In this document: positions 13,455 through 49,057 of the stretch, one piece after another
How positions within the stretch are numbered: position 1 is the first letter of the stretch
Layout: each line of letters begins with the position of its first letter
Source of the DNA: Giardia intestinalis
Lineage: Eukaryota
Length of the DNA stretch: 64,000 bases
Assembly: GCA_000002435.2 (NCBI GenBank)
Contig: CM018791.1
Strand: one strand, 5' to 3'
Notes under the pieces: model-generated
What the model was told of the DNA's origin: nothing
Database searches by the model: none
The model's input: only the letters and a program-made list of their open reading frames with translations
Made by a program: the position numbers and the translations under genes

Positions 13455-13483
13455 CACCCACCTATTCACTCGAGGGCTTACCA

Positions 13484-29530: not shown

Positions 29531-30574
29531 TCATCCTGTTGTCTGCTGGTAGCGATCGAGGATGTGGCGTGAGACAGTATAATACGCCTCTATCAAGCGT
29601 GCGCAATTCTCTGTGCAGACAACACTCAGATTGAAATAGAGCTCCTGTCCTTGTGGCATGGAAAAGTAGAGCGATAAATAATCTGAGTAATAGAAAAGTC
29701 GCCGCAGGCTTGGCACAGGGATAGATTCAATAATCTGCATGCTATCCCTACTGGCCAAACAGATGTACTCCCGAGTCAATAATAGATAACAATAGATAGA
29801 CTTTGCTGTATCCGGCCTGTCCACCATCTTAACTGTCTGGCCTCCACCTTTATTAATCAAATCACCAATCCAGACGGCCGGAATTGATAGCGAATCATAG
29901 AGCGCCAACTTCGAGAAACAGTACAGAAAGTCTGATAATATTGCCTCCTGCGATGAATACTTGAGAAGAGACCTAGCATCCCTATAAATTTCTTGCATTG
30001 CAGACTCAGTAAGAGCCTCGGGGTCCCAGGCAGTCTGCTCCAAAGCCTGGGATACTTCGAGGGGGATTATATGCTGATTCAGCTCAAGTATTAGTGCACC
30101 ATACTTGACTGCGATAAAGTAGCAGCAAAGATCAGAGGTGTTCTCAAGAAGACGGTCGCTGTGAGCAAGAACATGGCCCCGATGAATCTTGTCCAATGCG
30201 TGGTGAATGAGCATTCCCTTGTATACGGCAGAACACTCCGAATAATAGTCTGGGATGCTGCACTTTGCCCTCAGCTTGGAGTCCTCTACTACAGCACGAA
30301 CACCACTCACATCTGGGACGATAAGGGTAAATAGAAGACACTTAATGAGTTTGTTTCTTGGAGAGTAGATATCCACAAGCATAGTGTCTTCACTTACGAA
30401 GATGTCAAGACCCTGTGCGCTAATCTGAAAGAATCCGCAGGTAGCTGCCTCCAGAGGCCGCAAGCAGAGGCGGGCAACCACAGCTGCTTTGAGATCTCTG
30501 ACTAGCATACTTTGCGTTGCTGGGACAGTCAAGTGGCTCCCATCGAGCATATGGACAGTGACAGCGACATCCAT
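29531..30574 (-). CDS. hypothetical protein (347 aa)
   Basis: Complete ORF. N-terminal ~80 aa are ubiquitin-like/RA-like by pattern only. Confidence 0.4.
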   Translation of the reverse strand: MDVAVTVHMLDGSHLTVPATQSMLVRDLKAAVVARLCLRPLEAATCGFFQISAQGLDIFVSEDTMLVDIYSPRNKLIKCLLFTLIVPDVSGVRAVVEDSKLRAKCSIPDYYSECSAVYKGMLIHHALDKIHRGHVLAHSDRLLENTSDLCCYFIAVKYGALILELNQHIIPLEVSQALEQTAWDPEALTESAMQEIYRDARSLLKYSSQEAILSDFLYCFSKLALYDSLSIPAVWIGDLINKGGGQTVKMVDRPDTAKSIYCYLLLTREYICLASRDSMQIIESIPVPSLRRLFYYSDYLSLYFSMPQGQELYFNLSVVCTENCARLIEAYYTVSRHILDRYQQTTG

Positions 30575-30759
30575 GCATGGGAGTCCGAGCTTATGCTTTT
30601 TATTAAACGTACAGATATCGACCTCTGCTCCTCTTTCCAGTACTCTATGCAGCTAGTTTTCATTGTCTACATAGTCATTGCTTTATATATGATTTCACAG
30701 AACAATTTACCGGATATTCGGGACACAAGTCGATGGATCGGATACAGGCCAAATAGGAT

Positions 30760-31764
30760 TCATTCACCTTTGGAACGTGCTTCTAGATCACTTAACCTTT
30801 TTTCTAGCCTGGCTCTTTCTTCGGCAGAGATACGGTTTTCCTCTTTTAAGAAAGCCACTTCCTCTCGAAGAGCGTGGAGCTCTTGTTTAAAAGAGGCCAA
30901 GATAGAGTCGATTCCATCATACGATGGTGAAAGACATGAATTATCCAACAATGCTAGAAACTGTTTCGCCGTTGGTCTTTTTGCTGGATCTTTGTCAAGA
31001 AGGGACTCAATGAGGGTCATGAGTCTTTGGTTGCAGAGATTCGATAGATCGCTGATGTTGTATGACTCTTTATGGAACAACTTCCCAGTTAGTAGCTCAT
31101 ATGCAATGACCCCTAGGCTCCACATATCTGAAGAAAAGGTGTACGCTTCACCACCACTGTCCATATCCACCTCTGGAGCCACGTACTGTGATTCCTTAGT
31201 ACTGCTAATAGCAGCGGTTTTCCAGTACCTGCAATGAATCCCAAAGTCAGTGACGATCACTTGCTCTTTTGAAGAATTAAACATGATATTGCTCGGCTTT
31301 AGGTTATAATGGGGAGTAGGAGAGCCTCCATTATTTAAGGTATGAAGGTGCTCTAATGCTTTACCGACTTGCCGAAGTATGCCCAATGCCTCTTGTAAGG
31401 GAAGTTCTCGTTTATCTCTCTGGCGCTTGCGCATCTCATTGTGAAGTGAATTGGTATACGCTGGTATTTTGATGAGGAGAAGCTTTGAATTTGTGCCGAA
31501 CATTATAATCCTCGCTAAATTAGGATGATTTATCCTTTTAAGCTCATCTAGCTTATCAAGTAGCTTATCAAGTTGATCAGATGTCAGCAAATCAACAGTC
31601 ATTTCCTTTGCAACTTCCTTCTCAGTGCTCAGCAATCTGTAAACATTTCCGTGTGGCCCAAATATTCTGTCCACATTCTTATCAGGGTTATTGTCTATAT
31701 CATCTCTAATATAAGAGAAATCCTCTTGTAATAAACTCGTTCGTTCTTTTCTGAGTGAAAACAT
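30760..31764 (-). CDS. NEK-like kinase domain protein with C-terminal coiled coil (334 aa), probably inactive
   Basis: HYNLKPSNIMF (HRD to HYN), VTDFG, YVAPEVDMD, SDMWSLGVIAYELLTG, DKDPAKRPTAKQF. No Gly-loop. C-terminal heptad coiled coil. Confidence 0.6.
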   Translation of the reverse strand: MFSLRKERTSLLQEDFSYIRDDIDNNPDKNVDRIFGPHGNVYRLLSTEKEVAKEMTVDLLTSDQLDKLLDKLDELKRINHPNLARIIMFGTNSKLLLIKIPAYTNSLHNEMRKRQRDKRELPLQEALGILRQVGKALEHLHTLNNGGSPTPHYNLKPSNIMFNSSKEQVIVTDFGIHCRYWKTAAISSTKESQYVAPEVDMDSGGEAYTFSSDMWSLGVIAYELLTGKLFHKESYNISDLSNLCNQRLMTLIESLLDKDPAKRPTAKQFLALLDNSCLSPSYDGIDSILASFKQELHALREEVAFLKEENRISAEERARLEKRLSDLEARSKGE

Positions 31765-34145
31765 ACGCTTGACAACCAGTCTTTTTCATTTTAGCAAATA
31801 ATCAGCAGGGATTACGATCTTTCGCCTCTCCTCTGTGACCCTGACCCACTTGTTGAGGGTCCGGCGATTCAGGAACTACCGAGCCTGACTGATCATGTGT
31901 TCTAACATGCTTCTTTCTGCAATTAATGGATCTGCAGCCACTGTCGTGACCACAACACCAGCAGGCCCCGTCCTCTGCACCAGGGGCTTGCGGGCCCCTC
32001 AGGCGCGCCCCTGTGCGGAGAGTTTGAAGCCAACGCAGTGGGTTTGGAGCCCACCTGCTGGCTCGACCGATGCCCGGCCTGCCTGGCCAGCAGGACGCTC
32101 TCCAGACCGGGCCTTGCCCTCCCATGCTTTAAACCCTGAAGGCTTTACTCGCAGACAGCTAGGCGCCGTCTCGCTTTTCTGACGGCCTTTTACATAGCTA
32201 ATAGAGTTGATGCGTGGAACGGTCTTGCGCTAGCGGAGAGCTTGTACTGCTCTTGACAGCGTGCAGAAGAGCCTCTCTGCTATTTTGTTAAGACGTACTT
32301 GCAATAAAGCACCTCCTACTTCTCTCTATTTTAGACCGCACTACTCTTTCTGAGGTTGGGACACAGCCCGCCACGCTCTTTGATGCAAGCCCACTGCAAT
32401 GTCAACCCTACTCCACGTATCCTGAACACCTGATCGAGTCTGTCCTATACTGTGCGTACCAGGCTTCCAAGGCACTAGGCACATAACCACCACTCACCTT
32501 AAGGCTAATTCCATAAAGTGTGGCAGAGCTTTTGCCCATGCCTTCGTCGCAAGACAAGCAGACAGCCGTTCGGCTCTACTCTTAAGCTCTGATCTGATGC
32601 ACACAAGGGGCCATACACTCTGTGCTGCACATCTTGTTGCTACCGGGAGGCAAACTGTTTGCATTAGTCCCTTGCGTAAAAGGTGAAGAGAGGGAACATC
32701 ACTTCTGCAGAGCAACTTTACAATCCATGGCTGCGTTTCTATAATCGACATTCTATCGAAAGAATTGCTGTGAGCATGCTCATGAAGCCATAGAAGGTTG
32801 TTGGAATAGGACTTCTAGCGATAATACTCATGATGTCCCTGTGAACATTCCTATCTGCTGCACTGTCATTGCCATGGTATATTTGCGGATAGATAAGCAA
32901 TTGTGGCAGCCCTAATTTGTTGTTGAGCTACCTCAGTCGCAACTCAAACGTAAAGCAATAGCACGCATCAGCATCTTGCTCGGCGATACCGATCGAAGAT
33001 TGTGCACACAGCCCTTATCTAGTCATTATGCTTAGCTTCTCGATCTTATGAGCTTTCTAATGCACTCTGATTTCTTCTGCCAACTGTCTCGACTTCATCA
33101 TCTGATCTTCTTTGGCTTTATTCATAGAGTTGTCTATTTGTGATGGATATTCATGCAGGATATATCAGCGTACTGCTGCACTCAACAAGAATGCAGGGGT
33201 GTCACTTTTAAAGCAGCCAGCCTCAAGGAGTTTAATGGCAGTCTCTGTTGAAGACATCCAGTATGTGTGCACTACTGGGAGTGATGTATCTCATCACTAA
33301 GGACTTTAGAAGTCATCTACACATTAATGAATAAGCCCCGAAAGAGCGTAGCCTGTAGCTATCTGCAGCCAAATATAGGGCATGTTGATCGCATACACAC
33401 ATCCTTCTCAGCATATCTCACACACAGCCCTTACTTGCATCCAGCCTGATCTTGTCAGTAGGCTGTGCTCTCCTTAACTATAATGAGGCAGCTATACAAA
33501 CTATCTCGATAGCGCCTCATAGAAACTATGCTTTGACGGTATATTCCTCTCTGCGAGTAGGATGTTCTGGATTGTCTGGACTGATGAGGATCGTATTAAG
33601 GTGCAAAGAAGTACAACGATGTGGCTGATTATGTAGAGAAGGTCGAGAGCGATTAGGTGGGTAGCCACTAGGAGAAGCCGGCGACAAGCGAGGCACCCTT
33701 ATATGAGCCGGAGCATTGCAGATTCAGATGTCCATTGTCTGTTCAGATATTGGTGCGCGACTCGCATGGAGCAGACAACATGCCCGCGATGGAGTAGTAG
33801 GAGACGCGTTTACAGCTAAGCGTGAGTCTACGCCTTTTCCAGCAGAGGAAGCCAATAACGTCAGTAGGAGGGGCAGAAAAGATATGACCACAGGCATACT
33901 ATGAGCTCCTCGTACTATGTGTAATGTTTGAGTCTAACTTTGTATTAACTAGCCTTACTCTTATTTAAATCAAGAGATAAATCTATGATATTGGTCGCTT
34001 CCCAGTAGCAATACGCCCCCGATTCTAAGCTTCTTTAATTAACTAAGTTACAGAAAGACGCTGCCAATTTAAGCTCTTCTCATTCATGGACCAATCTATA
34101 CATCTGAGTGAAGAAAGTACCAATTAATTACAGATCCTAACTCCA

Positions 34146-37100
34146 ATGTTACTAGTACTTCTCGCAAGTTGTATAGCTGTACAAGCCGCGGTGTGTGCGC
34201 CCGCGCTGATCGGCGCCGGGTGTGCGACATGCACAGGAGAGAACGACGGACAGACGTGCCTTACGTGTAATCCCCAAGAGAACAAGGTGCAGCCTGGCGG
34301 AAAGAAATGCGGAGTCGGCTGCCCGGCGAACTCCACCCCTAAGGAGAGCGTGTGCGAGTGCAACGGAGGATACAGGCCGAACGCCCAGGGCCAGTGCGAG
34401 CAAGACCCCGCCGCGGTGTGTGCGCCCGCGCTGATCGGCGCCGGGTGTGCGACATGCACAGGAGAGAACGACGGACAGACGTGCCTTACGTGTAATCCCC
34501 AAGAGAACAAGGTGCAGCCTGGCGGAAAGAAATGCGGAGTCGGCTGCCCGGCGAACTCCACCCCTAAGGAGAGCGTGTGCGAGTGCAACGGAGGATACAG
34601 GCCGAACGCCCAGGGCCAGTGCGAGCAAGACCCCGCCGCGGTGTGTGCGCCCGCGCTGATCGGCGCCGGGTGTGCGACATGCACAGGAGAGAACGACGGA
34701 CAGACGTGCCTTACGTGTAATCCCCAAGAGAACAAGGTGCAGCCTGGCGGAAAGAAATGCGGAGTCGGCTGCCCGGCGAACTCCACCCCTAAGGAGAGCG
34801 TGTGCGAGTGCAACGGAGGATACAGGCCGAACGCCCAGGGCCAGTGCGAGCAAGACCCCGCCGCGGTGTGTGCGCCCGCGCTGATCGGCGCCGGGTGTGC
34901 GACATGCACAGGAGAGAACGACGGACAGACGTGCCTTACGTGTAATCCCCAAGAGAACAAGGTGCAGCCTGGCGGAAAGAAATGCGGAGTCGGCTGCCCG
35001 GCGAACTCCACCCCTAAGGAGAGCGTGTGCGAGTGCAACGGAGGATACAGGCCGAACGCCCAGGGCCAGTGCGAGCAAGACCCCGCCGCGGTGTGTGCGC
35101 CCGCGCTGATCGGCGCCGGGTGTGCGACATGCACAGGAGAGAACGACGGACAGACGTGCCTTACGTGTAATCCCCAAGAGAACAAGGTGCAGCCTGGCGG
35201 AAAGAAATGCGGAGTCGGCTGCCCGGCGAACTCCACCCCTAAGGAGAGCGTGTGCGAGTGCAACGGAGGATACAGGCCGAACGCCCAGGGCCAGTGCGAG
35301 CAAGACCCCGCCGCGGTGTGTGCGCCCGCGCTGATCGGCGCCGGGTGTGCGACATGCACAGGAGAGAACGACGGACAGACGTGCCTTACGTGTAATCCCC
35401 AAGAGAACAAGGTGCAGCCTGGCGGAAAGAAATGCGGAGTCGGCTGCCCGGCGAACTCCACCCCTAAGGAGAGCGTGTGCGAGTGCAACGGAGGATACAG
35501 GCCGAACGCCCAGGGCCAGTGCGAGCAAGACCCCGCCGCGGTGTGTGCGCCCGCGCTGATCGGCGCCGGGTGTGCGACATGCACAGGAGAGAACGACGGA
35601 CAGACGTGCCTTACGTGTAATCCCCAAGAGAACAAGGTGCAGCCTGGCGGAAAGAAATGCGGAGTCGGCTGCCCGGCGAACTCCACCCCTAAGGAGAGCG
35701 TGTGCGAGTGCAACGGAGGATACAGGCCGAACGCCCAGGGCCAGTGCGAGCAAGACCCCGCCGCGGTGTGTGCGCCCGCGCTGATCGGCGCCGGGTGTGC
35801 GACATGCACAGGAGAGAACGACGGACAGACGTGCCTTACGTGTAATCCCCAAGAGAACAAGGTGCAGCCTGGCGGAAAGAAATGCGGAGTCGGCTGCCCG
35901 GCGAACTCCACCCCTAAGGAGAGCGTGTGCGAGTGCAACGGAGGATACAGGCCGAACGCCCAGGGCCAGTGCGAGCAAGACCCCGCCGCGGTGTGTGCGC
36001 CCGCGCTGATCGGCGCCGGGTGTGCGACATGCACAGGAGAGAACGACGGACAGACGTGCCTTACGTGTAATCCCCAAGAGAACAAGGTGCAGCCTGGCGG
36101 AAAGAAATGCGGAGTCGGCTGCCCGGCGAACTCCACCCCTAAGGAGAGCGTGTGCGAGTGCAACGGAGGATACAGGCCGAACGCCCAGGGCCAGTGCGAG
36201 CAAGACCCCGCCGCGGTGTGTGCGCCCGCGCTGATCGGCGCCGGGTGTGCGACATGCACAGGAGAGAACGACGGACAGACGTGCCTTACGTGTAATCCCC
36301 AAGAGAACAAGGTGCAGCCTGGCGGAAAGAAATGCGGAGTCGGCTGCCCGGCGAACTCCACCCCTAAGGAGAGCGTGTGCGAGTGCAACGGAGGATACAG
36401 GCCGAACGCCCAGGGCCAGTGCGAGCAAGACCCCGCCGCGGTGTGTGCGCCCGCGCTGATCGGCGCCGGGTGTGCGACATGCACAGGAGAGAACGACGGA
36501 CAGACGTGCCTTACGTGTAATCCCCAAGAGAACAAGGTGCAGCCTGGCGGAAAGAAATGCGGAGTCGGCTGCCCGGCGAACTCCACCCCTAAGGAGAGCG
36601 TGTGCGAGTGCAACGGAGGATACAGGCCGAACGCCCAGGGCCAGTGCGAGCAAGACCCCGCCGCGGTGTGTGCGCCCGCGCTGATCGGCGCCGGGTGTGC
36701 GACATGCACAGGAGAGAACGACGGACAGACGTGCCTTACGTGTAATCCCCAAGAGAACAAGGTGCAGCCTGGCGGAAAGAAATGCGGAGTCGGCTGCCCG
36801 GCGAACTCCACCCCTAAGGAGAGCGTGTGCGAGTGCAACGGAGGATACAGGCCGAACGCCCAGGGCCAGTGCGAGCAAGACCCCGCCGCGGTGTGTGCGC
36901 CCGCGCTGATCGGCGCCGGGTGTGCGACATGCACAGGAGAGAACGACGGACAGACGTGCCTTACGTGTAATCCCCAAGAGAACAAGGTGCAGCCTGGCGG
37001 AAAGAAATGCGGAGTCGGCTGCCCGGCGAACTCCACCCCTAAGGAGAGCGTGTGCGAGTGCAACGGAGGATACAGGCCGAACGCCCAGGGCCAGTGCGAG

Positions 37101-40100
37101 CAAGACCCCGCCGCGGTGTGTGCGCCCGCGCTGATCGGCGCCGGGTGTGCGACATGCACAGGAGAGAACGACGGACAGACGTGCCTTACGTGTAATCCCC
37201 AAGAGAACAAGGTGCAGCCTGGCGGAAAGAAATGCGGAGTCGGCTGCCCGGCGAACTCCACCCCTAAGGAGAGCGTGTGCGAGTGCAACGGAGGATACAG
37301 GCCGAACGCCCAGGGCCAGTGCGAGCAAGACCCCGCCGCGGTGTGTGCGCCCGCGCTGATCGGCGCCGGGTGTGCGACATGCACAGGAGAGAACGACGGA
37401 CAGACGTGCCTTACGTGTAATCCCCAAGAGAACAAGGTGCAGCCTGGCGGAAAGAAATGCGGAGTCGGCTGCCCGGCGAACTCCACCCCTAAGGAGAGCG
37501 TGTGCGAGTGCAACGGAGGATACAGGCCGAACGCCCAGGGCCAGTGCGAGCAAGACCCCGCCGCGGTGTGTGCGCCCGCGCTGATCGGCGCCGGGTGTGC
37601 GACATGCACAGGAGAGAACGACGGACAGACGTGCCTTACGTGTAATCCCCAAGAGAACAAGGTGCAGCCTGGCGGAAAGAAATGCGGAGTCGGCTGCCCG
37701 GCGAACTCCACCCCTAAGGAGAGCGTGTGCGAGTGCAACGGAGGATACAGGCCGAACGCCCAGGGCCAGTGCGAGCAAGACCCCGCCGCGGTGTGTGCGC
37801 CCGCGCTGATCGGCGCCGGGTGTGCGACATGCACAGGAGAGAACGACGGACAGACGTGCCTTACGTGTAATCCCCAAGAGAACAAGGTGCAGCCTGGCGG
37901 AAAGAAATGCGGAGTCGGCTGCCCGGCGAACTCCACCCCTAAGGAGAGCGTGTGCGAGTGCAACGGAGGATACAGGCCGAACGCCCAGGGCCAGTGCGAG
38001 CAAGACCCCGCCGCGGTGTGTGCGCCCGCGCTGATCGGCGCCGGGTGTGCGACATGCACAGGAGAGAACGACGGACAGACGTGCCTTACGTGTAATCCCC
38101 AAGAGAACAAGGTGCAGCCTGGCGGAAAGAAATGCGGAGTCGGCTGCCCGGCGAACTCCACCCCTAAGGAGAGCGTGTGCGAGTGCAACGGAGGATACAG
38201 GCCGAACGCCCAGGGCCAGTGCGAGCAAGACCCCGCCGCGGTGTGTGCGCCCGCGCTGATCGGCGCCGGGTGTGCGACATGCACAGGAGAGAACGACGGA
38301 CAGACGTGCCTTACGTGTAATCCCCAAGAGAACAAGGTGCAGCCTGGCGGAAAGAAATGCGGAGTCGGCTGCCCGGCGAACTCCACCCCTAAGGAGAGCG
38401 TGTGCGAGTGCAACGGAGGATACAGGCCGAACGCCCAGGGCCAGTGCGAGCAAGACCCCGCCGCGGTGTGTGCGCCCGCGCTGATCGGCGCCGGGTGTGC
38501 GACATGCACAGGAGAGAACGACGGACAGACGTGCCTTACGTGTAATCCCCAAGAGAACAAGGTGCAGCCTGGCGGAAAGAAATGCGGAGTCGGCTGCCCG
38601 GCGAACTCCACCCCTAAGGAGAGCGTGTGCGAGTGCAACGGAGGATACAGGCCGAACGCCCAGGGCCAGTGCGAGCAAGACCCCGCCGCGGTGTGTGCGC
38701 CCGCGCTGATCGGCGCCGGGTGTGCGACATGCACAGGAGAGAACGACGGACAGACGTGCCTTACGTGTAATCCCCAAGAGAACAAGGTGCAGCCTGGCGG
38801 AAAGAAATGCGGAGTCGGCTGCCCGGCGAACTCCACCCCTAAGGAGAGCGTGTGCGAGTGCAACGGAGGATACAGGCCGAACGCCCAGGGCCAGTGCGAG
38901 CAAGACCCCGCCGCGGTGTGTGCGCCCGCGCTGATCGGCGCCGGGTGTGCGACATGCACAGGAGAGAACGACGGACAGACGTGCCTTACGTGTAATCCCC
39001 AAGAGAACAAGGTGCAGCCTGGCGGAAAGAAATGCGGAGTCGGCTGCCCGGCGAACTCCACCCCTAAGGAGAGCGTGTGCGAGTGCAACGGAGGATACAG
39101 GCCGAACGCCCAGGGCCAGTGCGAGCAAGACCCCGCCGCGGTGTGTGCGCCCGCGCTGATCGGCGCCGGGTGTGCGACATGCACAGGAGAGAACGACGGA
39201 CAGACGTGCCTTACGTGTAATCCCCAAGAGAACAAGGTGCAGCCTGGCGGAAAGAAATGCGGAGTCGGCTGCCCGGCGAACTCCACCCCTAAGGAGAGCG
39301 TGTGCGAGTGCAACGGAGGATACAGGCCGAACGCCCAGGGCCAGTGCGAGCAAGACCCCGCCGCGGTGTGTGCGCCCGCGCTGATCGGCGCCGGGTGTGC
39401 GACATGCACAGGAGAGAACGACGGACAGACGTGCCTTACGTGTAATCCCCAAGAGAACAAGGTGCAGCCTGGCGGAAAGAAATGCGGAGTCGGCTGCCCG
39501 GCGAACTCCACCCCTAAGGAGAGCGTGTGCGAGTGCAACGGAGGATACAGGCCGAACGCCCAGGGCCAGTGCGAGCAAGACCCCGCCGCGGTGTGTGCGC
39601 CCGCGCTGATCGGCGCCGGGTGTGCGACATGCACAGGAGAGAACGACGGACAGACGTGCCTTACGTGTAATCCCCAAGAGAACAAGGTGCAGCCTGGCGG
39701 AAAGAAATGCGGAGTCGGCTGCCCGGCGAACTCCACCCCTAAGGAGAGCGTGTGCGAGTGCAACGGAGGATACAGGCCGAACGCCCAGGGCCAGTGCGAG
39801 CAAGACCCCGCCGCGGTGTGTGCGCCCGCGCTGATCGGCGCCGGGTGTGCGACATGCACAGGAGAGAACGACGGACAGACGTGCCTTACGTGTAATCCCC
39901 AAGAGAACAAGGTGCAGCCTGGCGGAAAGAAATGCGGAGTCGGCTGCCCGGCGAACTCCACCCCTAAGGAGAGCGTGTGCGAGTGCAACGGAGGATACAG
40001 GCCGAACGCCCAGGGCCAGTGCGAGCAAGACCCCGCCGCGGTGTGTGCGCCCGCGCTGATCGGCGCCGGGTGTGCGACATGCACAGGAGAGAACGACGGA

Positions 40101-40607
40101 CAGACGTGCCTTACGTGTAATCCCCAAGAGAACAAGGTGCAGCCTGGCGGAAAGAAATGCGGAGTCGGCTGCCCGGCGAACTCCACCCCTAAGGAGAGCG
40201 TGTGCGAGTGCAACGGAGGATACAGGCCGAACGCCCAGGGCCAGTGCGAGCAAGACCCCGCCGCGGTGTGTGCGCCCGCGCTGATCGGCGCCGGGTGTGC
40301 GACATGCACAGGAGAGAACGACGGACAGACGTGCCTTACGTGTAATCCCCAAGAGAACAAGGTGCAGCCTGGCGGAAAGAAATGCGGAGTCGGCTGCCCG
40401 GCGAACTCCACCCCTAAGGAGAGCGTGTGCGAGTGCAACGGAGGATACAGGCCGAACGCCCAGGGCCAGTGCGAGCCTTCTAATACTAATAAGAGTAGCG
40501 GTCTTTCTACCGGCGCCATAGCAGGCATCGCTGTGGCTGCTGTCATCGTTGTAGGAGGGCTCGTCGGCTTCCTTTGCTGGTGGTTCATATGTAGGGGGAA
40601 AGCGTAG
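34146..40607 (+). CDS. Variant-specific surface protein (VSP) with ~28 tandem 75-aa Cys-rich repeats (2153 aa)
   Basis: Signal peptide MLLVLLASCIAVQAA. 75-aa unit with 10 Cys (CATC, CLTC, CGVGC, CEC motifs) repeated 27 times plus one 70-aa copy. TM helix and invariant VSP tail ...GFLCWWFICRGKA. Followed by the conserved VSP 3' element ACTTAGGTAGTAAAC. Confidence 0.92.
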   Translation: MLLVLLASCIAVQAAVCAPALIGAGCATCTGENDGQTCLTCNPQENKVQPGGKKCGVGCPANSTPKESVCECNGGYRPNAQGQCEQDPAAVCAPALIGAGCATCTGENDGQTCLTCNPQENKVQPGGKKCGVGCPANSTPKESVCECNGGYRPNAQGQCEQDPAAVCAPALIGAGCATCTGENDGQTCLTCNPQENKVQPGGKKCGVGCPANSTPKESVCECNGGYRPNAQGQCEQDPAAVCAPALIGAGCATCTGENDGQTCLTCNPQENKVQPGGKKCGVGCPANSTPKESVCECNGGYRPNAQGQCEQDPAAVCAPALIGAGCATCTGENDGQTCLTCNPQENKVQPGGKKCGVGCPANSTPKESVCECNGGYRPNAQGQCEQDPAAVCAPALIGAGCATCTGENDGQTCLTCNPQENKVQPGGKKCGVGCPANSTPKESVCECNGGYRPNAQGQCEQDPAAVCAPALIGAGCATCTGENDGQTCLTCNPQENKVQPGGKKCGVGCPANSTPKESVCECNGGYRPNAQGQCEQDPAAVCAPALIGAGCATCTGENDGQTCLTCNPQENKVQPGGKKCGVGCPANSTPKESVCECNGGYRPNAQGQCEQDPAAVCAPALIGAGCATCTGENDGQTCLTCNPQENKVQPGGKKCGVGCPANSTPKESVCECNGGYRPNAQGQCEQDPAAVCAPALIGAGCATCTGENDGQTCLTCNPQENKVQPGGKKCGVGCPANSTPKESVCECNGGYRPNAQGQCEQDPAAVCAPALIGAGCATCTGENDGQTCLTCNPQENKVQPGGKKCGVGCPANSTPKESVCECNGGYRPNAQGQCEQDPAAVCAPALIGAGCATCTGENDGQTCLTCNPQENKVQPGGKKCGVGCPANSTPKESVCECNGGYRPNAQGQCEQDPAAVCAPALIGAGCATCTGENDGQTCLTCNPQENKVQPGGKKCGVGCPANSTPKESVCECNGGYRPNAQGQCEQDPAAVCAPALIGAGCATCTGENDGQTCLTCNPQENKVQPGGKKCGVGCPANSTPKESVCECNGGYRPNAQGQCEQDPAAVCAPALIGAGCATCTGENDGQTCLTCNPQENKVQPGGKKCGVGCPANSTPKESVCECNGGYRPNAQGQCEQDPAAVCAPALIGAGCATCTGENDGQTCLTCNPQENKVQPGGKKCGVGCPANSTPKESVCECNGGYRPNAQGQCEQDPAAVCAPALIGAGCATCTGENDGQTCLTCNPQENKVQPGGKKCGVGCPANSTPKESVCECNGGYRPNAQGQCEQDPAAVCAPALIGAGCATCTGENDGQTCLTCNPQENKVQPGGKKCGVGCPANSTPKESVCECNGGYRPNAQGQCEQDPAAVCAPALIGAGCATCTGENDGQTCLTCNPQENKVQPGGKKCGVGCPANSTPKESVCECNGGYRPNAQGQCEQDPAAVCAPALIGAGCATCTGENDGQTCLTCNPQENKVQPGGKKCGVGCPANSTPKESVCECNGGYRPNAQGQCEQDPAAVCAPALIGAGCATCTGENDGQTCLTCNPQENKVQPGGKKCGVGCPANSTPKESVCECNGGYRPNAQGQCEQDPAAVCAPALIGAGCATCTGENDGQTCLTCNPQENKVQPGGKKCGVGCPANSTPKESVCECNGGYRPNAQGQCEQDPAAVCAPALIGAGCATCTGENDGQTCLTCNPQENKVQPGGKKCGVGCPANSTPKESVCECNGGYRPNAQGQCEQDPAAVCAPALIGAGCATCTGENDGQTCLTCNPQENKVQPGGKKCGVGCPANSTPKESVCECNGGYRPNAQGQCEQDPAAVCAPALIGAGCATCTGENDGQTCLTCNPQENKVQPGGKKCGVGCPANSTPKESVCECNGGYRPNAQGQCEQDPAAVCAPALIGAGCATCTGENDGQTCLTCNPQENKVQPGGKKCGVGCPANSTPKESVCECNGGYRPNAQGQCEQDPAAVCAPALIGAGCATCTGENDGQTCLTCNPQENKVQPGGKKCGVGCPANSTPKESVCECNGGYRPNAQGQCEQDPAAVCAPALIGAGCATCTGENDGQTCLTCNPQENKVQPGGKKCGVGCPANSTPKESVCECNGGYRPNAQGQCEPSNTNKSSGLSTGAIAGIAVAAVIVVGGLVGFLCWWFICRGKA
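34191..40475 (+). repeat. Tandem repeat array, 225-bp unit x ~27.9, 100% identical copies
   Basis: Period 225 from the recurring ORF starts (34222, 34447, ... 40297). Identical translations in all three frames of both strands imply identity at nucleotide level. Confidence 0.92.
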
Positions 40608-40619
40608 ATGTACTTAGGT

Positions 40620-40626
40620 AGTAAAC
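40620..40626 (+). promoter_or_regulatory. Giardia poly(A) signal AGTAAAC within conserved VSP 3' motif
   Basis: tag-atgtACTTAGGTAGTAAAC 13 nt after the stop codon. Confidence 0.7.
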
Positions 40627-41122
40627 GCGTCACTGTATATGGCTCATATAAATGTGCTGCTGGGCTCACTTGAGGACCTGGTCCAGAGATCGTGCGGGTA
40701 ATCATCGCTCCTTCCTGGCCAGTTCAGAGACGAGGGTTGGCTGTGGATGATATAATAGGGATCTCCCTTCACTTGTATACCAGGAGTCTTTTGCGTCCCT
40801 CAGTTGTTCCGCAGAGGTGTGCTCAGTCTGAGTATGCACGTCGGTCCTTTAGGGGTTCAGGCCTTCTTGCAGACTCTCTGCTCTACCGGTGGCGCCTCTC
40901 CTTAGTCTTTCTTCGTGGTGGGTGAAGCTCCGGTCACCATCCTTTTTTAGATGCCCCGTCTGCCAGGGGCTGCCATCGGGCTCTCCGCTGGCTGGGCCCC
41001 TCGGTGTCCGGGCAGCTGTGGTTCTGGGTCAGTGCTCTACAGTCGCGGTCACTAGGTCCCAGTGGGTTCGGATGGTGGGTGAGGAGGGGTTGCTGAGGCG
41101 GTGAGGCTGGTGGGACCGGGGG

Positions 41123-42974
41123 GTGTTCGCATGTGCCTCTGGGGTCAGTGGGTCAGTGAGGTGGTGGCTGTGGTGACTGGGGGCTATCCATCTATGATTC
41201 ACCCCTCTGTGGACTCGTGGTCTGTGAGTGCCTCCACCCAGACAGCACCCCAGGAGCCGGAGAGTGGTGCCAGCCTAGCTGCCCTCCCTCCTCGGTGCCT
41301 CCCAGTGCAGACTCACCGGAGGCCACTACCCTGTCAGCCACCCAAAGGAGCCGTGCACACCGGGACAGAGAGGATGACCAAGGGGGTCAAGCAGCCCTGC
41401 CACGAGGGTGCACAGCAACCAGCATGAGATGTAGGGTCTGCTCGAGCGATGTAGTGGCAGACGACTCCCTCTGACAGCGACCCTGGTGACTGCACTGGTC
41501 TGCTCTCGAGGCTGAGTGACAGTGTGCACAGATGGACATGAGTGCAGGAGGACCGTCCACACACGGACAGACTGTGTGGACCCAGAGAGGACTGGAGTCT
41601 GCTCGGGACACGCTGACTGTGTGCCCATACGAGAGTGCCAGGCAACTACTCAAGCACCGAGAGGCAGGTACAGACACGGGCACTAGAGATCCCCAGCCAG
41701 ACACATTGCTATGCTCATCCACAGGGGCATCAGAGGGCCAGGTGGAGTCACCCTCACAGTTAGGGCCTGATAGGAAGCCAGAGGACTCAAACACTACAGC
41801 AGGCCCAAGGGAGGCACACTCCAGGCAGGTGAGCAGTGGCAGAGCCTTGATAGCTGCCATCCACCCCCATGACACCCAGGCAGGCACCAGACTCCGAAGA
41901 CTCGCTGGCCTCGACTGATGACCCGAGGGGGCAGCAGCCAGAGGAGTGAGGAGGCCTTCGGACACCACAAGAGGCCGGCTGTCCAGCAGGCTATGAGGCA
42001 GACAGGTGGCCTCTGAGCACCATAAGGCACAGGAGCCGACCATCATGAGTGATGCCCGATCACAGAGATGACCACGAGCGCCCTCCACCGCACTCTGGGG
42101 GGCTGTCGATCATCCCACTGCCTCTCATAGCAGACCTCCTTGGGGGCAGTGCAGTGGGTCCCAGCTCATACAGGAGGGTGTGTGCCCCCCTCAGTATAGG
42201 ATGCCCCGACTCTTCCCGAGGGGTCATCAGAGCCACGAGGAGGGGTCAAGGTCCTGGTGGATCACACCGGGAACCCCTCGAATGGGCACAGCAGGTGATG
42301 TTGGGTGACCCTCAGCGTGCTCCTCTCTGCATGGTAGAGCATCCTGAGACCAAGGAAGCTCACCCCTGCCTACGGATGACACACAGCGCTCCACAACGAG
42401 GACCCACCAGGAGCAGCACAGCTGACCACGGGGGCAGTGCAGCCACCCGGTACCCCACCATGCCAGTCTTCTGGGCCATCACACTAGAGGCCTGAGAGAA
42501 CCCCATCCCATCCACAGGGTCATCCACACCCCTGCTGGCCCGAGGTGAACTGCACCCATCGAGGCACTGGACAGGGCATGCTGGGGGCCCAGCAGATCCA
42601 CACAGAGCATCAGCACAGAGCATCAGCGAGTAGCAGGAGAGGCTGCGATGGCCTGCCTCAGCCCTCACGTACCAGCCAGCCAGAGGCAGTACTACCCGAG
42701 ACATGCAGGGGCCAAGGGAGGCGCTCAGTCAGGGGACATGACACAATCGTCGGTGCCTGTGTCTCGGGGAGTGCAACGCAGGCTGGGGATCAGACGCAAC
42801 CACCTTGGCAAACAGAGAGGGGATCACCCACCACCCCACTGGCCCACCAGACCCAGGGGCACATACAAGCACCCCCACCCGGTCCCCCGGTCCCACCAGC
42901 CTCACCGCCTCAGCAACCCCTCCTCACCCACCAGCCGGCCCGCTATGGAACCTACGTGACCGTGACCGTGGGAG
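41123..42974. other. GC-rich (~60-63%), T-depleted spacer of the palindrome; no credible coding capacity
   Basis: T is only ~10-18% on the + strand in sampled 60-nt lines (e.g. 42781-42840 has 6 T). Long ORFs occur in several frames simultaneously, a composition artefact. Arm homology decays gradually into it. Confidence 0.5.
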
Positions 42975-43382
42975 CGCTGACCCAGAACCACAGCTGCCCG
43001 GACACCGAGGGGCCCAGCCAGTGGAGAGCCCGATGGCAGCCCCTGGCAGACGGGGCATCTAAAAAAGGATGGTGACCGGAGCTTCACCCACCACGAAGAA
43101 AGACTAAGGAGAGGCGCCACCGGTAGAGCAGAGAGTCTGCAAGAAGGCCTGAACCCCTAAAGGACCGACGTGCATACTCAGACTGAGCACACCTCTGCGG
43201 AACAACTGAGGGACGCAAAAGACTCCTGGTATACAAGTGAAGGGAGATCCCTATTATATCATCCACAGCCAACCCTCGTCTCTGAACTGGCCAGGAAGGA
43301 GCGATGATTACCCGCACGATCTCTGGACCAGGTCCTCAAGTGAGCCCAGCAGCACATTTATATGAGCCATATACAGTGACGC

Positions 43383-43389
43383 GTTTACT
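43383..43389 (-). promoter_or_regulatory. Poly(A) signal AGTAAAC (minus strand) of short VSP copy
   Basis: Mirror image of the 40620-40626 element. Confidence 0.7.
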
Positions 43390-43401
43390 ACCTAAGTACA
43401 T

Positions 43402-43788
43402 CTACGCTTTCCCCCTACATATGAACCACCAGCAAAGGAAGCCGACGAGCCCTCCTACAACGATGACAGCAGCCACAGCGATGCCTGCTATGGCGCCGGT
43501 AGAAAGACCGCTACTCTTATTAGTATTAGAAGGCTCGCACTGGCCCTGGGCGTTCGGCCTGTATCCTCCGTTGCACTCGCACACGCTCTCCTTAGGGGTG
43601 GAGTTCGCCGGGCAGCCGACTCCGCATTTCTTTCCGCCAGGCTGCACCTTGTTCTCTTGGGGATTACACGTAAGGCACGTCTGTCCGTCGTTCTCTCCTG
43701 TGCATGTCGCACACCCGGCGCCGATCAGCGCGGGCGCACACACCGCGGCTTGTACAGCTATACAACTTGCGAGAAGTACTAGTAACAT
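43402..43788 (-). CDS. Variant-specific surface protein, single-repeat paralogue of the 34146-40607 VSP (128 aa)
   Basis: Same signal peptide, one 70-aa Cys-rich unit, same TM and CRGKA tail. Identical to the long copy apart from repeat number. Confidence 0.88.
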   Translation of the reverse strand: MLLVLLASCIAVQAAVCAPALIGAGCATCTGENDGQTCLTCNPQENKVQPGGKKCGVGCPANSTPKESVCECNGGYRPNAQGQCEPSNTNKSSGLSTGAIAGIAVAAVIVVGGLVGFLCWWFICRGKA

Positions 43789-46175
43789 TGGAGTTAGGAT
43801 CTGTAATTAATTGGTACTTTCTTCACTCAGATGTATAGATTGGTCCATGAATGAGAAGAGCTTAAATTGGCAGCGTCTTTCTGTAACTTAGTTAATTAAA
43901 GAAGCTTAGAATCGGGGGCGTATTGCTACTGGGAAGCGACCAATATCATAGATTTATCTCTTGATTTAAATAAGAGTAAGGCTAGTTAATACAAAGTTAG
44001 ACTCAAACATTACACATAGTACGAGGAGCTCATAGTATGCCTGTGGTCATATCTTTTCTGCCCCTCCTACTGACGTTATTGGCTTCCTCTGCTGGAAAAG
44101 GCGTAGACTCACGCTTAGCTGTAAACGCGTCTCCTACTACTCCATCGCGGGCATGTTGTCTGCTCCATGCGAGTCGCGCACCAATATCTGAACAGACAAT
44201 GGACATCTGAATCTGCAATGCTCCGGCTCATATAAGGGTGCCTCGCTTGTCGCCGGCTTCTCCTAGTGGCTACCCACCTAATCGCTCTCGACCTTCTCTA
44301 CATAATCAGCCACATCGTTGTACTTCTTTGCACCTTAATACGATCCTCATCAGTCCAGACAATCCAGAACATCCTACTCGCAGAGAGGAATATACCGTCA
44401 AAGCATAGTTTCTATGAGGCGCTATCGAGATAGTTTGTATAGCTGCCTCATTATAGTTAAGGAGAGCACAGCCTACTGACAAGATCAGGCTGGATGCAAG
44501 TAAGGGCTGTGTGTGAGATATGCTGAGAAGGATGTGTGTATGCGATCAACATGCCCTATATTTGGCTGCAGATAGCTACAGGCTACGCTCTTTCGGGGCT
44601 TATTCATTAATGTGTAGATGACTTCTAAAGTCCTTAGTGATGAGATACATCACTCCCAGTAGTGCACACATACTGGATGTCTTCAACAGAGACTGCCATT
44701 AAACTCCTTGAGGCTGGCTGCTTTAAAAGTGACACCCCTGCATTCTTGTTGAGTGCAGCAGTACGCTGATATATCCTGCATGAATATCCATCACAAATAG
44801 ACAACTCTATGAATAAAGCCAAAGAAGATCAGATGATGAAGTCGAGACAGTTGGCAGAAGAAATCAGAGTGCATTAGAAAGCTCATAAGATCGAGAAGCT
44901 AAGCATAATGACTAGATAAGGGCTGTGTGCACAATCTTCGATCGGTATCGCCGAGCAAGATGCTGATGCGTGCTATTGCTTTACGTTTGAGTTGCGACTG
45001 AGGTAGCTCAACAACAAATTAGGGCTGCCACAATTGCTTATCTATCCGCAAATATACCATGGCAATGACAGTGCAGCAGATAGGAATGTTCACAGGGACA
45101 TCATGAGTATTATCGCTAGAAGTCCTATTCCAACAACCTTCTATGGCTTCATGAGCATGCTCACAGCAATTCTTTCGATAGAATGTCGATTATAGAAACG
45201 CAGCCATGGATTGTAAAGTTGCTCTGCAGAAGTGATGTTCCCTCTCTTCACCTTTTACGCAAGGGACTAATGCAAACAGTTTGCCTCCCGGTAGCAACAA
45301 GATGTGCAGCACAGAGTGTATGGCCCCTTGTGTGCATCAGATCAGAGCTTAAGAGTAGAGCCGAACGGCTGTCTGCTTGTCTTGCGACGAAGGCATGGGC
45401 AAAAGCTCTGCCACACTTTATGGAATTAGCCTTAAGGTGAGTGGTGGTTATGTGCCTAGTGCCTTGGAAGCCTGGTACGCACAGTATAGGACAGACTCGA
45501 TCAGGTGTTCAGGATACGTGGAGTAGGGTTGACATTGCAGTGGGCTTGCATCAAAGAGCGTGGCGGGCTGTGTCCCAACCTCAGAAAGAGTAGTGCGGTC
45601 TAAAATAGAGAGAAGTAGGAGGTGCTTTATTGCAAGTACGTCTTAACAAAATAGCAGAGAGGCTCTTCTGCACGCTGTCAAGAGCAGTACAAGCTCTCCG
45701 CTAGCGCAAGACCGTTCCACGCATCAACTCTATTAGCTATGTAAAAGGCCGTCAGAAAAGCGAGACGGCGCCTAGCTGTCTGCGAGTAAAGCCTTCAGGG
45801 TTTAAAGCATGGGAGGGCAAGGCCCGGTCTGGAGAGCGTCCTGCTGGCCAGGCAGGCCGGGCATCGGTCGAGCCAGCAGGTGGGCTCCAAACCCACTGCG
45901 TTGGCTTCAAACTCTCCGCACAGGGGCACGCCTGAGGGGCCCGCAAGCCCCTGGTGCAGAGGACGGGGCCTGCTGGTGTTGTGGTCACGACAGTGGCTCT
46001 GGTGTACTCCAGGAGCGGCCACCGCAGGGCTGGTCGGGCCGTGTGAGCAGGGTTCTGCGGAGCCCGAGTAGAGTCTGTTCTGTGTGTATGGCCACTCAGA
46101 GGCAGTGGCCTAACGATATTCATCGACCTACTAACTAGTAAACCCGATAAAGAGCCGGTTGGAATACGCAAATAC

Positions 46176-47228
46176 GTGCATAAGAGCAAAATGTTGTGTT
46201 CAGACCAAAATTTGCATGGTCGAGACCTCGCTTCAGTAACATCCCCTCTGAGACTCGTGGGTGAGGGTGGGAGGCGCCTTGTTTTTCGCAGGAACAAGGA
46301 GCTGATCTTAATCTCCAAGGTCTCTGCAGCCTCCGACGAAAGCTTCGAACAGACCATAGGCGGCCTCTTTCCGCTCTTTCCTTGGAAGCCGAGTCGCATA
46401 ACTGAAAGTTTATCTCAAGAACTTAACGCATTTCCTCTGCAAGTCCGTGCAAAAAGATATGCTGGAACGGCATTTCCCAGACCAAGCCCTGGGGAGACAT
46501 GCCTGAGCTACACCGGAGTGCATGATCTGCTTACTGTGGTATGCATTAAGCCACACTTTCCCAGCAAAGGAGGTTGGATCGAAAGTTTTTCATTACAAAG
46601 GAAAACAGATGCCGGACAGCACTTCTGTGATTGCTTGGCTCGTGGTGCATTTTACAAAGCGTGTGCTAGCAAGGATAGACTTGTCCACTGGCTCAACACG
46701 GCGTATATCTGCGGTCTCAACCACGGTAGCAACCACCTAACCGTTTACGACTTTGCATCTGATGCTTCTGCGCTCTCCTCCAGTGAGACCGATAAACTAT
46801 TTGGCGCAGTAGCTTGTGCATTAACAGGAGGAAACAATAGTGTTTGCATTCAAATCTACAAGTTGATACATATGTTAGAGGCTCTTCAGCGCGTCTCTTC
46901 TTCAACGCACTTACAAAATGTGGTATCGGCAAAAGAATATGCACACTTTTCCAGCAATTATAGAACTCTAAGCCATAGAGCTATCGAGATTGCTATACAG
47001 CTCTACGCCGGTGGAAAGCTTCCACCTTATGACAATCTCCCATACGTGGACAAGCTCGTCTGCATCCTTCTTTTTAAAACTCTTTCCGATGCATCGCTGC
47101 TCTTCTACCTCTCTAAATCTGACGAGAAGGTTCAATGGTATCTAACGGACCTTGCATTGAAGTCTGCCGAAAGAGTTGGAAAATGGGCATTCGCATCAGC
47201 AGCAAACGATAAGCACAGGGAGCAGTAG
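46176..47228 (+). CDS. hypothetical protein (350 aa)
   Basis: First gene outside the right palindrome arm. Complete ORF. Confidence 0.4.
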   Translation: MHKSKMLCSDQNLHGRDLASVTSPLRLVGEGGRRLVFRRNKELILISKVSAASDESFEQTIGGLFPLFPWKPSRITESLSQELNAFPLQVRAKRYAGTAFPRPSPGETCLSYTGVHDLLTVVCIKPHFPSKGGWIESFSLQRKTDAGQHFCDCLARGAFYKACASKDRLVHWLNTAYICGLNHGSNHLTVYDFASDASALSSSETDKLFGAVACALTGGNNSVCIQIYKLIHMLEALQRVSSSTHLQNVVSAKEYAHFSSNYRTLSHRAIEIAIQLYAGGKLPPYDNLPYVDKLVCILLFKTLSDASLLFYLSKSDEKVQWYLTDLALKSAERVGKWAFASAANDKHREQ

Positions 47229-47702
47229 AGCAACCGGAACCGTGTAGGTTTTATTAGGGAACTCCAGACCATACACTTCCGACGTATCGTTTGTGGAAAG
47301 TAAGTATAGGATAGGCCATGTATTCGATATCGTAAAGACCTGGAACGGTCGTAACATAATCCTACTTCTGCGAGCGATTGATGCGACCAAGATTGTGGGT
47401 AAATAATGTGCTATAATATGTTCTGGATTTGCAAATCTATCTGGCCAGTAAAATAGAACCCCGACGGACATGGCAGATGACGAGCCGAGGCACTGTAGGG
47501 AAAGTGTTGTGATGAACCTTCTGATACGGGCTGTCTCTGGTGCTGCAGCGAGTAGGAAGAAGAATAGAGATAACATAACCCAGGTCGATGTGCAAAAGTA
47601 ATTAAGGGCACTGACACCGTTATCGCGGGTAACCTTGATTACCAGAAAGCTATAGAAGAGACTGAGCAACCCAGAGAGAAGGCGGAACAAGAAAAGTGTC
47701 AT
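47196..47702 (-). CDS. hypothetical small membrane protein (168 aa)
   Basis: Several hydrophobic helices (LFLFRLLSGLLSLFYSFLVI, VMLSLFFFLLAAA, ALLLPVLIVCC). Overlaps the 3' end of the previous gene by 33 bp. Confidence 0.3.
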   Translation of the reverse strand: MTLFLFRLLSGLLSLFYSFLVIKVTRDNGVSALNYFCTSTWVMLSLFFFLLAAAPETARIRRFITTLSLQCLGSSSAMSVGVLFYWPDRFANPEHIIAHYLPTILVASIARRSRIMLRPFQVFTISNTWPILYLLSTNDTSEVYGLEFPNKTYTVPVALLLPVLIVCC

Positions 47703-47707
47703 CTATT

Positions 47708-49057
47708 TTACTTTTTCACCCCCATCCCACTTGTGCTCAGGAAGCGCTGAAGCGCCTCTCGAAGCTCACGATTTTCCCGCTCAAGAAGAACGCTTTCTCT
47801 TTCGAGGGCCAATCGGTCAATACTTACTCTGCTCAACTTCTTATAGATTGAGCGAAGCTCGCCCACGGCCACCATCGCATCCTTTCCCAGAAAATTATCC
47901 CCTACATTTAGGTAAGATGTGGTCACCATCTCGTCGTGTTTGCACTCGTCGTTTATGTGCCTATTCGTCTCATCATCTATTCTATCTACTTCGTTCACCC
48001 GCTCAGCCTCTGTTTCTAGTCGTGTGCACAGTGTCGATACTCTTATGATTTTATTAGCGCTCTCCTTGAGTGATATGATTCGGTCCTCTGCCTCGTGTGC
48101 AGCCAGAACTAGAGCTTTCATCCGTCCTGTCTCAGAGTTGCGATAGGCGGTCAACTTCTTTTTAAGCTCTACAAACTCCAGGTAGGTGGCCTCTTTCTCC
48201 TTTTTGAGAAGGGCATTCTTGGCTCTAAACTCCTCTGTTGTGGTTTGGATCTTGGCTCTCCAGTGCGCAATCGCCTTGGACAATCTCTCAATTTTCTGCT
48301 TCTGCCTCTCGATCGCCAAGGAAGACTGTTGATCCTTCAATAAAAGAACCTTAAACTGGTGTTGCTTGGTGTCCGTGTTTGCGCGATACTTTTCGTGGGC
48401 GTCGAGGAGGTGCCGTTCCAAATCAGCGTTTATTTCTTCAAGATTTAAACGCAGAACATTGCATGTTTCTTGGCTCTGATTCTTTAATTCTGATATCTTG
48501 CTGGAGTATGAGGAGTTCAGTTGCTGAATAAGTTGGTCTTCTTGCTCTTGAGTGGAGCTTTTGATTTCTTGAAGCAGGCGCTCTCGTGCGTCATAGCTTT
48601 TCTTGAGAGCTGCTATTTCTTGGTCAAACTGCGCCTGGAGCCTGGTGATATTATCTTCCAGGGATTCTTCAAATAGAGCACTTCGCTCCTGGAGCAGCGC
48701 AAGGATGCCGTCCATGGTTGAAAGATGTGTCCTGATGCACCGTCGACGTTGTTCTTCCGCAATAGATATGTATCTAGATAAAAGTGTGATAAACGCGTCC
48801 TTCCTATCTACTTGATGGTCAAAGTCTTGAATCAATGACTCTATTTGCTTGATAAGCTCGGTCTTCTTAACCGATCGGAGGCGGTCGCGCCAGATAGACT
48901 GGATTTTGGCCCTATTTACAGCGCATATCCCCGCTTCTGCTTGGACCATATTTGTTATTGCGGTAGCGTACTTTGCATGTATCTCATTTCTTCGCTCATC
49001 CTGAAGCTGTCGCTGGAGCTCTAGCTGGGCTGCAGGGTCCAGTCCTGCATCAAACAT
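47708..49057 (-). CDS. Coiled-coil flagellar protein, CCDC65/DRC2-like (449 aa)
   Basis: AKIQSIWRDRLRSVKKTELIKQIESLIQDFDHQVDRKDAFITLLSRYISIAEEQ parallels the conserved N-terminal block of nexin-dynein regulatory complex subunit 2, as recalled from memory. Remainder is heptad coiled coil. Confidence 0.4.
   Translation of the reverse strand: MFDAGLDPAAQLELQRQLQDERRNEIHAKYATAITNMVQAEAGICAVNRAKIQSIWRDRLRSVKKTELIKQIESLIQDFDHQVDRKDAFITLLSRYISIAEEQRRRCIRTHLSTMDGILALLQERSALFEESLEDNITRLQAQFDQEIAALKKSYDARERLLQEIKSSTQEQEDQLIQQLNSSYSSKISELKNQSQETCNVLRLNLEEINADLERHLLDAHEKYRANTDTKQHQFKVLLLKDQQSSLAIERQKQKIERLSKAIAHWRAKIQTTTEEFRAKNALLKKEKEATYLEFVELKKKLTAYRNSETGRMKALVLAAHEAEDRIISLKESANKIIRVSTLCTRLETEAERVNEVDRIDDETNRHINDECKHDEMVTTSYLNVGDNFLGKDAMVAVGELRSIYKKLSRVSIDRLALERESVLLERENRELREALQRFLSTSGMGVKK

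Follow-up and report, generated by a model that had tools for sequence, protein, structure and literature searches.

In a 64,000-nt stretch of Giardia intestinalis WB C6 DNA (hereafter the window; chromosome 3 of the PacBio reference assembly, GCA_000002435.2, contig CM018791.1), two genes for variant-specific surface proteins (VSPs) occupy the arms of one palindrome and carry 28 copies and one copy, respectively, of the same coding repeat. The long gene, GL50803_0050290 (XP_037901808.1 / KAE8302825.1), lies at 34146..40607 on the plus strand and encodes 2153 aa: a putative signal peptide, 28 modules, and a transmembrane helix with the CRGKA tail, the C-terminal end reading ...GFLCWWFICRGKA. 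The short gene, GL50803_00102178 (XP_001704930.1 / KAE8302826.1; vsp156), lies at 43402..43788 on the minus strand and encodes 128 aa: a putative signal peptide, one module and the tail. The two genes converge tail to tail, with 2794 bp between their stop codons. The left palindrome arm (31936..41037, plus strand; 9102 nt) comprises the long gene with 2210 nt of flank on its 5' side and 430 nt on its 3' side; the right arm (42972..45998, minus strand; 3027 nt) equals the left arm minus 27 repeat units, save for three mismatches; and a spacer of 1934 nt (41038..42971; 62.7% GC) lies between them.

The repeat is a 225-bp coding tandem array (34185..40476, plus strand) with a unit of exactly 75 codons, each specifying a 75-aa module with ten cysteines and two CXXC motifs (AAVCAPALIGAGCATCTGENDGQTCLTCNPQENKVQPGGKKCGVGCPANSTPKESVCECNGGYRPNAQGQCEQDP). 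Tandem Repeats Finder returned it as a single array at 34185-40476 (period 225, 28.0 copies, 100% matches, 0% indels, score 12584), within 6 bp of the 34191-40475 proposed earlier by a sequence-only reading of this DNA. A base-by-base check placed the exact period-225 run at 6292 bp, i.e., 27 identical full units plus 217 bp (27.96 copies), at 64.9% GC. Thus the identity of all units at the nucleotide level, claimed by that reading, was borne out for 27 of 27 full units; its count of 27 full 75-aa units plus a partial one also stood, except that the partial unit spans 72 aa (217 nt) rather than 70. With in-frame ectodomain repeats of 225 bp, the gene falls within the tandem-repeat VSP class of vspA6, vspC5 and CRP136, defined in PMC2996952, in which such repeats measure roughly 105-516 bp. 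Twenty-seven identical 225-bp units cannot be attributed to chance; recent expansion or continuous homogenization, as the sequence-only reading had it, is how arrays of this type are normally explained, and it suits the present one. Overall, the observation made in that reading is confirmed and its interpretation supported.

Both genes encode VSPs, as several lines of evidence show: i) The short protein matched Pfam family PF03302 at 67.6 bits (cut-off 31.4; E = 1.2e-18), with residues 15-128 on profile positions 284-397; ii) Both proteins end in ...GGLVGFLCWWFICRGKA, the CRGKA tail, and these columns are invariant in 20 relatives; iii) A CAATGTT initiator element, of a motif class described in PMC2996952, spans the start codon of the long gene (34144..34150, plus strand) and has its mirror copy on the minus strand at the short gene; iv) The conserved VSP 3' element TACTTAGGTAGTAAACGCGT, which holds an AGTAAA-type polyadenylation signal, lies at 40611..40630 (plus strand), 4 nt past the stop codon, and a motif search placed the motif at 40612 (plus) and 43397 (minus); v) Both proteins are exact matches to entries annotated 'VSP' in the WB clone C6 reference, on a 1,973,847-bp contig. 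A 2022 preprint (10.1101/2022.03.07.483299) also places both genes on chromosome 3 (NC_051858.1), gives TACTTAGGTAGTAAACGCGT as the 3' 20-mer of each (Table S6) and 'caatgtt' for the long gene, and describes the long gene as 6462 nt and 2153 aa with 283 Cys (13.1%), 56 CXXC motifs and 28 repeats. The PF03302 match requires the tail, since three modules without it gave no match at E <= 0.01.

The hydrophobic leader MLLVLLASCIAVQA, recognized by inspection as a putative signal peptide, is common to both proteins, and the predicted model of the 128-aa protein contains a helix at residues 105-125. The long product is a type-I membrane protein whose entire ectodomain consists of 28 identical 75-aa, 10-cysteine modules, and the module, composed of two CXXC motifs and an EGF-like half, is joined directly to the invariant VSP transmembrane segment and CRGKA tail. 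The cysteine pattern of the module is likewise invariant across the 20 relatives. As for its fold, the AlphaFold model of the 128-aa protein is of moderate confidence (mean predicted local distance difference test score 69.8; ectodomain 79-87). A Foldseek search of the PDB returned no significant match (best E = 0.75), with EGF-like and furin-like cysteine-rich domains heading the list, and a sequence-profile search of the PDB returned weak EGF matches only (factor IX, E = 0.005); the "EGF-like half-module" is therefore a resemblance, not a finding.

Deletion of 27 units (6075 bp, at offset 39) from the long gene reproduced the short gene base for base, in agreement with the single unit previously seen in the mirror gene. 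The two genes differ at the unit boundaries: the join between units reads ...GAGC AAGACCCC GCCGCG..., while the short gene reads GAGC followed by CTTCTAAT. The 8-bp AAGACCCC is confined to the inter-unit junctions and does not occur in the short gene. Because it lies only between units, the long gene can become the short one in a single step, while the present short gene cannot become the array in a single step; in-register recombination of the first unit with the last would be such a step and would yield exactly the short gene. Moreover, CAAG is followed directly by CCGCGG at the leader-to-module join, while at the inter-unit join ACCCCG intervenes (CAAG ACCCCG CCGCGG). These two junctions suggest an original duplication of 219 bp and a 6-bp indel that would later have spread across the array.

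The arms of the palindrome differ at 32006/45928, 40987/43022 and 41033/42976, i.e., at three of 3244 aligned bases, which the repeat tool had rounded to 100% identity. The palindrome perceived in the sequence-only reading is therefore real and tail to tail, but falls short of strict identity between its arms. Each of the mismatches is found no more than 70 nt from an arm end, an edge clustering that, by post hoc arithmetic, has a chance of ~1 in 10,000 if mismatches fall uniformly over the 3244 bases. The outer arm boundary is abrupt and the inner one graded: identity falls to 78-85% over ~130 nt (41038-41170 vs 42969-42825) before homology ends, so that the spacer ends (41038-41170 and 42825-42969) form a degenerate inverted repeat of 78-85% identity. 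In this inner zone the divergence between arms matches that between WB and isolate DH (84-87% identity). The mismatches, few and at the edges only, together with the diverged inner zone, support gene conversion between the arms. Within the spacer, tblastn with 125 collected VSP proteins found no VSP pseudogene, which published tail-to-tail pairs often have; its open reading frames (ORFs) contained no Pfam domain, and no Rfam family was detected in 30000-48000.

Synteny at this locus is kept in DH (assemblage A2, contig AHGT01000059) and in P15 (assemblage E): both show a kinase, an 826-aa protein (only 745 aa in P15, cut by the contig end), an aminotransferase, a 347-aa protein and a kinase, followed by a one-module VSP of 127 or 128 aa. 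Furthermore, a metagenome contig assembled with MEGAHIT crosses both flanks and a single unit. Given these syntenic one-module orthologues and the MEGAHIT contig, one module is likely to be the ancestral architecture of the locus. No inverted partner was found in the 4.7 kb that follow the DH gene, where a reverse-transcriptase ORF lies instead.

Identity between WB and DH falls stepwise along the locus, from 95-100% (mostly 97-99%) in the left flank and 93-98% in the upstream arm region to ~87% in the gene and 68-75% in the first 250-350 nt of the 3' flank. The number of synonymous substitutions per synonymous site (dS) in the gene is 0.26 overall and 0.52 in the tail, and, when 43039-43788 is compared with L001:10001-10750 of DH, the conserved tail holds 11 synonymous and only two non-synonymous differences. 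This stepwise drop and the dS values indicate that the VSP segment has a history different from that of its surroundings; its tail and 3' flank look as if they had been replaced by ectopic conversion from other VSP genes. The ratio of non-synonymous to synonymous rates, for WB against DH or P15, gave no sign of positive selection (0.70 and 0.28 in the ectodomain; 0.05 and 0.03 in the tail), which in so short a gene is weak evidence either way.

The comparison with DH also bears on the orientation of the spacer. DH is colinear through left flank, upstream region, VSP, 3' flank and spacer homologue, and downstream of the VSP it runs into a homologue of WB 42971-41562 at 88-92% identity. In WB, however, the left-flank junction is found on the left arm and the 3'-flank-to-spacer junction on the right arm; the spacer segment 41562-42971 is homologous to the DH downstream sequence in right-arm orientation, and 41171-41561 has no DH counterpart. 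The spacer is thus inverted relative to A2. If the DH order is ancestral, this would be explained most simply by an inverted duplication and, after it, inter-arm crossovers that were odd in number and flipped the spacer.

Further copies of VSP 3'-flank sequence were encountered in both isolates. DH has a second copy at L001:12168-12420, 68% identical, in direct orientation and 1.8 kb downstream of the gene, just before the reverse-transcriptase ORF (12570-14456, minus strand); a search beside this copy for a remnant of CRGKA-tailed VSP coding sequence found none. In P15 (ACVC01000563) the orthologous one-module VSP stands between two perfect inverted copies of a 330-nt element (L003:8104-8433 and L003:9126-9455), each made up of the final 8 coding nucleotides and the 3' flank. 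The gene's own 3' end supplies one of them, and the other is situated 314 nt ahead of the start codon; the contig ends precisely where the repeat does. This arrangement may represent an invertible VSP cassette or, alternatively, a repeat at which the assembly broke. A stretch of WB (33547-33739) is 72% similar to this P15 element.

A homologue search with the long protein identified four other giant WB VSPs (P0122-P0125; 1229-1983 aa) built of homologous 74-80-aa modules, and no copy-number variants from other isolates; when both proteins of the pair were looked up in an assembly index by exact sequence, no match was returned. All full units are identical at the protein level in P0122 (26 x 74 aa) and P0123 (16 x 74 aa), while P0124 has one variant unit and P0125 several. 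Thus uniform arrays are typical of the family, and the variants kept in P0124 and P0125 show that smoothing by the assembly pipeline is not automatic.

Two of these relatives deserve description. In P0125 (1949 aa, on a 1,485,438-bp WB contig), an 80-aa unit is replaced at residues ~340-395 by a 52-aa stretch (VQAWTERGRTAAHTSRPGAG...), which suggests that the same DNA is read in another frame between two compensating indels; these may reflect either true variation or long-read errors left in the reference. A one-module version of P0122, P0012 (133 aa), occurs at L004:2002-2403 and L005:51-452 (ENA ERZ27317378 and ERZ19219916), where two different assemblers each recovered it together with both flanks; the A2-like orthologue of the gene studied here is also present in one of these assemblies. 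The explanation is either that several of the giant WB arrays expanded in that lineage or that collapse of such arrays is systematic in short-read assemblies.

Taking the locus as a whole, we have considerable confidence that WB (assemblage A1) carries a real VSP array that expanded in this lineage and is kept uniform in register, within a palindrome whose arms are homogenized by conversion and have recombined at least once. In-register misalignment of the 225-bp units, through replication slippage, unequal sister-chromatid exchange or single-strand annealing, would produce both growth and uniformity of the array (concerted evolution), with the reading frame preserved because the unit length is a multiple of three. 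Gene conversion from arm to arm would keep the arms almost identical, and at least one inter-arm crossover would have inverted the spacer. As to the short arm, the orthologues incline us to the view that it probably never expanded.

One alternative is that the short gene results from the complete collapse of an array: in that case both arms would once have carried arrays, and recombination of first with last unit would have reset one of them. We give this a substantial, if somewhat below-even, chance. In-register deletion of the array gives exactly the short gene; once reached, the one-module state would be absorbing, as the short gene lacks the AAGACCCC needed for regrowth; and the arms exchange sequence, so either side may have carried the array. 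However, the single module is the older form, to judge by its presence at the corresponding site in A2 and E, and the right arm bears no trace of a second array or junction. The sequence-only reading had offered the partner gene as either the unexpanded ancestor or a fully contracted state; the A2 and E orthologues and the absent 8-bp junction narrow this choice.

The main rival to the overall picture accepts the array and assigns its exact number of 28 units, its perfect uniformity and its confinement to one arm to consensus building in a tetraploid genome, so that no single true haplotype would look like this. The sequence-only reading had raised a possible assembly artefact in the 28-copy number, a legitimate caveat. 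Such an effect is conceivable: repeat numbers in the vsp repertoire paper are called approximate and alleles vary in copy number (PMC2996952), VSP regions show raised allelic variation and an enrichment of structural variants in nanopore data, and the frame-shifted-like 52-aa stretch of P0125 makes residual indel errors inside arrays possible. We nevertheless judge it unlikely, for the following reasons: i) The PacBio reads (N50 12.7 kb, 10% >20 kb, 200x) were long enough to span 6.3 kb (PMC7000408); ii) Split-read checks showed no misassembly, and Illumina correction changed 50 single-nucleotide polymorphisms and 85 indels genome-wide; iii) Variant units survive in the P0124 and P0125 arrays of the same assembly; iv) Each arm is tied to a unique flank of its own, and the spacer, which has a DH homologue, is a unique anchor as well.

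Several points weigh against a real, lineage-specific array in a conversion-homogenized palindrome. The array is found in one assembly only: it first appears in the PacBio assembly (PMC7000408), and of the two genes the Sanger assembly of 2007 contained the 128-aa one alone. The vsp156 entry of Adam 2010 (PMC2996952) lists 128 aa, 13 Cys, two CXXC motifs, chromosome 3 and CAATGTT, with no pair or repeat flag, and the missing repeat flag implies that the Sanger assembly held only the one-module gene. The one-module orthologues are all known from assemblies of short reads or 454 data, in which identical repeats can be collapsed. Furthermore, the degenerate inner zone could derive from a dispersed VSP 3'-flank family, a possibility opened by the second 3'-flank-like copy (68%) in DH, rather than from an old duplication, which would weaken the argument for homogenization. 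Conversion tracts that routinely cross the gene should have copied the array to the other arm or erased it; the asymmetry of the array thus requires either a recent change or conversion tracts confined to the flanks. Finally, the preprint RNA-seq tables consulted (10.1101/2022.03.07.483299) list only GL50803_00102178, at a low level.

This last point has to be read with the sequence overlap in mind: no stretch of up to 217 nt and no tryptic peptide is peculiar to the short gene, since all of them recur in the long one. Consequently short-read RNA-seq, small-RNA mapping and tryptic peptides cannot positively identify GL50803_00102178, and the expression values and the 'Unique' peptide label given for it (preprint Tables S9 and S13) cannot be specific to it. 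Only the inter-unit junction marks the long gene, as GAGCAAGACCCCGCCGCG in DNA and as ...CEQDPAAVC... in protein.

By analogy with the rest of the family, whose members are expressed on the surface one at a time, with switching, one of the two products could form the coat of the trophozoite once it is chosen for expression. The long form would then present a highly repetitive epitope, and changes in copy number would give size and antigen variation without new sequence. It is a long shot, in our estimate, that the lopsided palindrome is a working size switch, with inter-arm recombination relocating, copying or erasing the array and inverting the spacer. If it were, a clonal line could alternate between a giant and a mini antigen under identical promoters and 3' ends, and the locus would provide a test case for sequence-based VSP silencing in Giardia, all stretches of the short gene (<=217 nt) being present in the long one. 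More generally, three processes could be measured cleanly at this locus in a parasite that is tetraploid and apparently asexual: the gain and loss of repeats, conversion between arms, and inversion of the spacer.

We dismiss the idea that antisense open frames at 34124-40705 (2193 aa) and 34152-40352 (2066 aa; both minus strand), with a one-unit twin at 43304-43810 (168 aa, plus strand), are the real genes and the VSP frame incidental, for although they are longer than or similar to the VSP frame, they are a by-product of repeating a GC-rich, stop-free unit, the twin has no Pfam domain, and the plus-strand frame has every VSP hallmark and conserved relatives. In all likelihood they are shadow ORFs, a type of frame that was annotated to excess in the first WB genome. 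Elsewhere in the window, a 4194-aa ORF (51360-63944, minus strand) occupies the right end.

Both repeat arrays and paired genes have precedents among VSPs. The vsp repertoire paper (PMC2996952) counted 30 vsp genes with repeats, the units measuring 105-516 bp and numbering 2 to >20, as well as 14 identical inverted vsp pairs 2-4 kb apart; it also reported allelic variation in repeat number for vspA6 and vspC5 and called assembled copy numbers approximate. The PacBio assembly paper (PMC7000408) lists 19 duplicated VSP pairs, 12 of them tail to tail with 2526-2813 bp between the genes; the present pair is absent from the published lists of such pairs because its genes differ in size. The preprint (10.1101/2022.03.07.483299) states that no duplicated VSPs have repeats, which this pair contradicts. 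A full-text search of a library of papers for both gene identifiers found no mention in main text, and neither gene is mentioned in the paper on Be-2 (beaver, A1) or in one of its supplements. The gene, the array and the class are thus already known, and the lopsided pairing seems to be undescribed.

The closest precedent is the pair formed by vspA6 (CRP170, vsp67) and vspA6-S1 (vsp175), which likewise sets many copies of a repeat (22-25, ~23, of 195 bp) against approximately one (PMC2996952). That pair, however, consists of separate members of linear arrays on chromosome 4, with scattered substitutions and ~1.3 kb of non-repeat ectodomain, whereas the present genes are arms of one palindrome, are identical outside the array and have ectodomains made of repeats only. 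In vspC5 (vsp90), as in the long gene, repeats extend from just past the leader peptide to the conserved 3' end, but the unit is 105 bp. P0122 resembles the long gene in its homologous module (26 x 74 aa), in the identity of its full units and in the same PSNTNKSSGLS tail; unlike the present gene, it had no matching one-module WB protein among the results of the 128-aa query, its one-module versions occurring only in short-read assemblies of other isolates.

With the identical inverted pairs (vsp1267 and 13-19 further ones), a class that stands head to head or tail to tail, the present pair shares the tail-to-tail orientation, a distance between ORFs that lies within 2-4 kb (2794 bp, fitting 2526-2813) and flanks that are near-identical up to the divergence point. 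It departs from them in that the ORFs differ by 27 units, encoding 2153 and 128 aa and becoming identical only after those units are removed, and in that the identical 5' flank runs for 2210 nt, compared with the reported 139-729 bp. Beyond Giardia, the palindromes of the human Y chromosome have arms kept near-identical by intrachromosomal gene conversion, and fungal adhesin genes (FLO, ALS) have unstable intragenic repeats through which surface proteins shift in size by in-frame gain and loss of repeats; for the present locus these are analogies only, drawn from unrelated organisms and protein families. Apart from one twist that had not been described, the feature is an ordinary representative of a class already well documented, and it reveals no system of a new kind.

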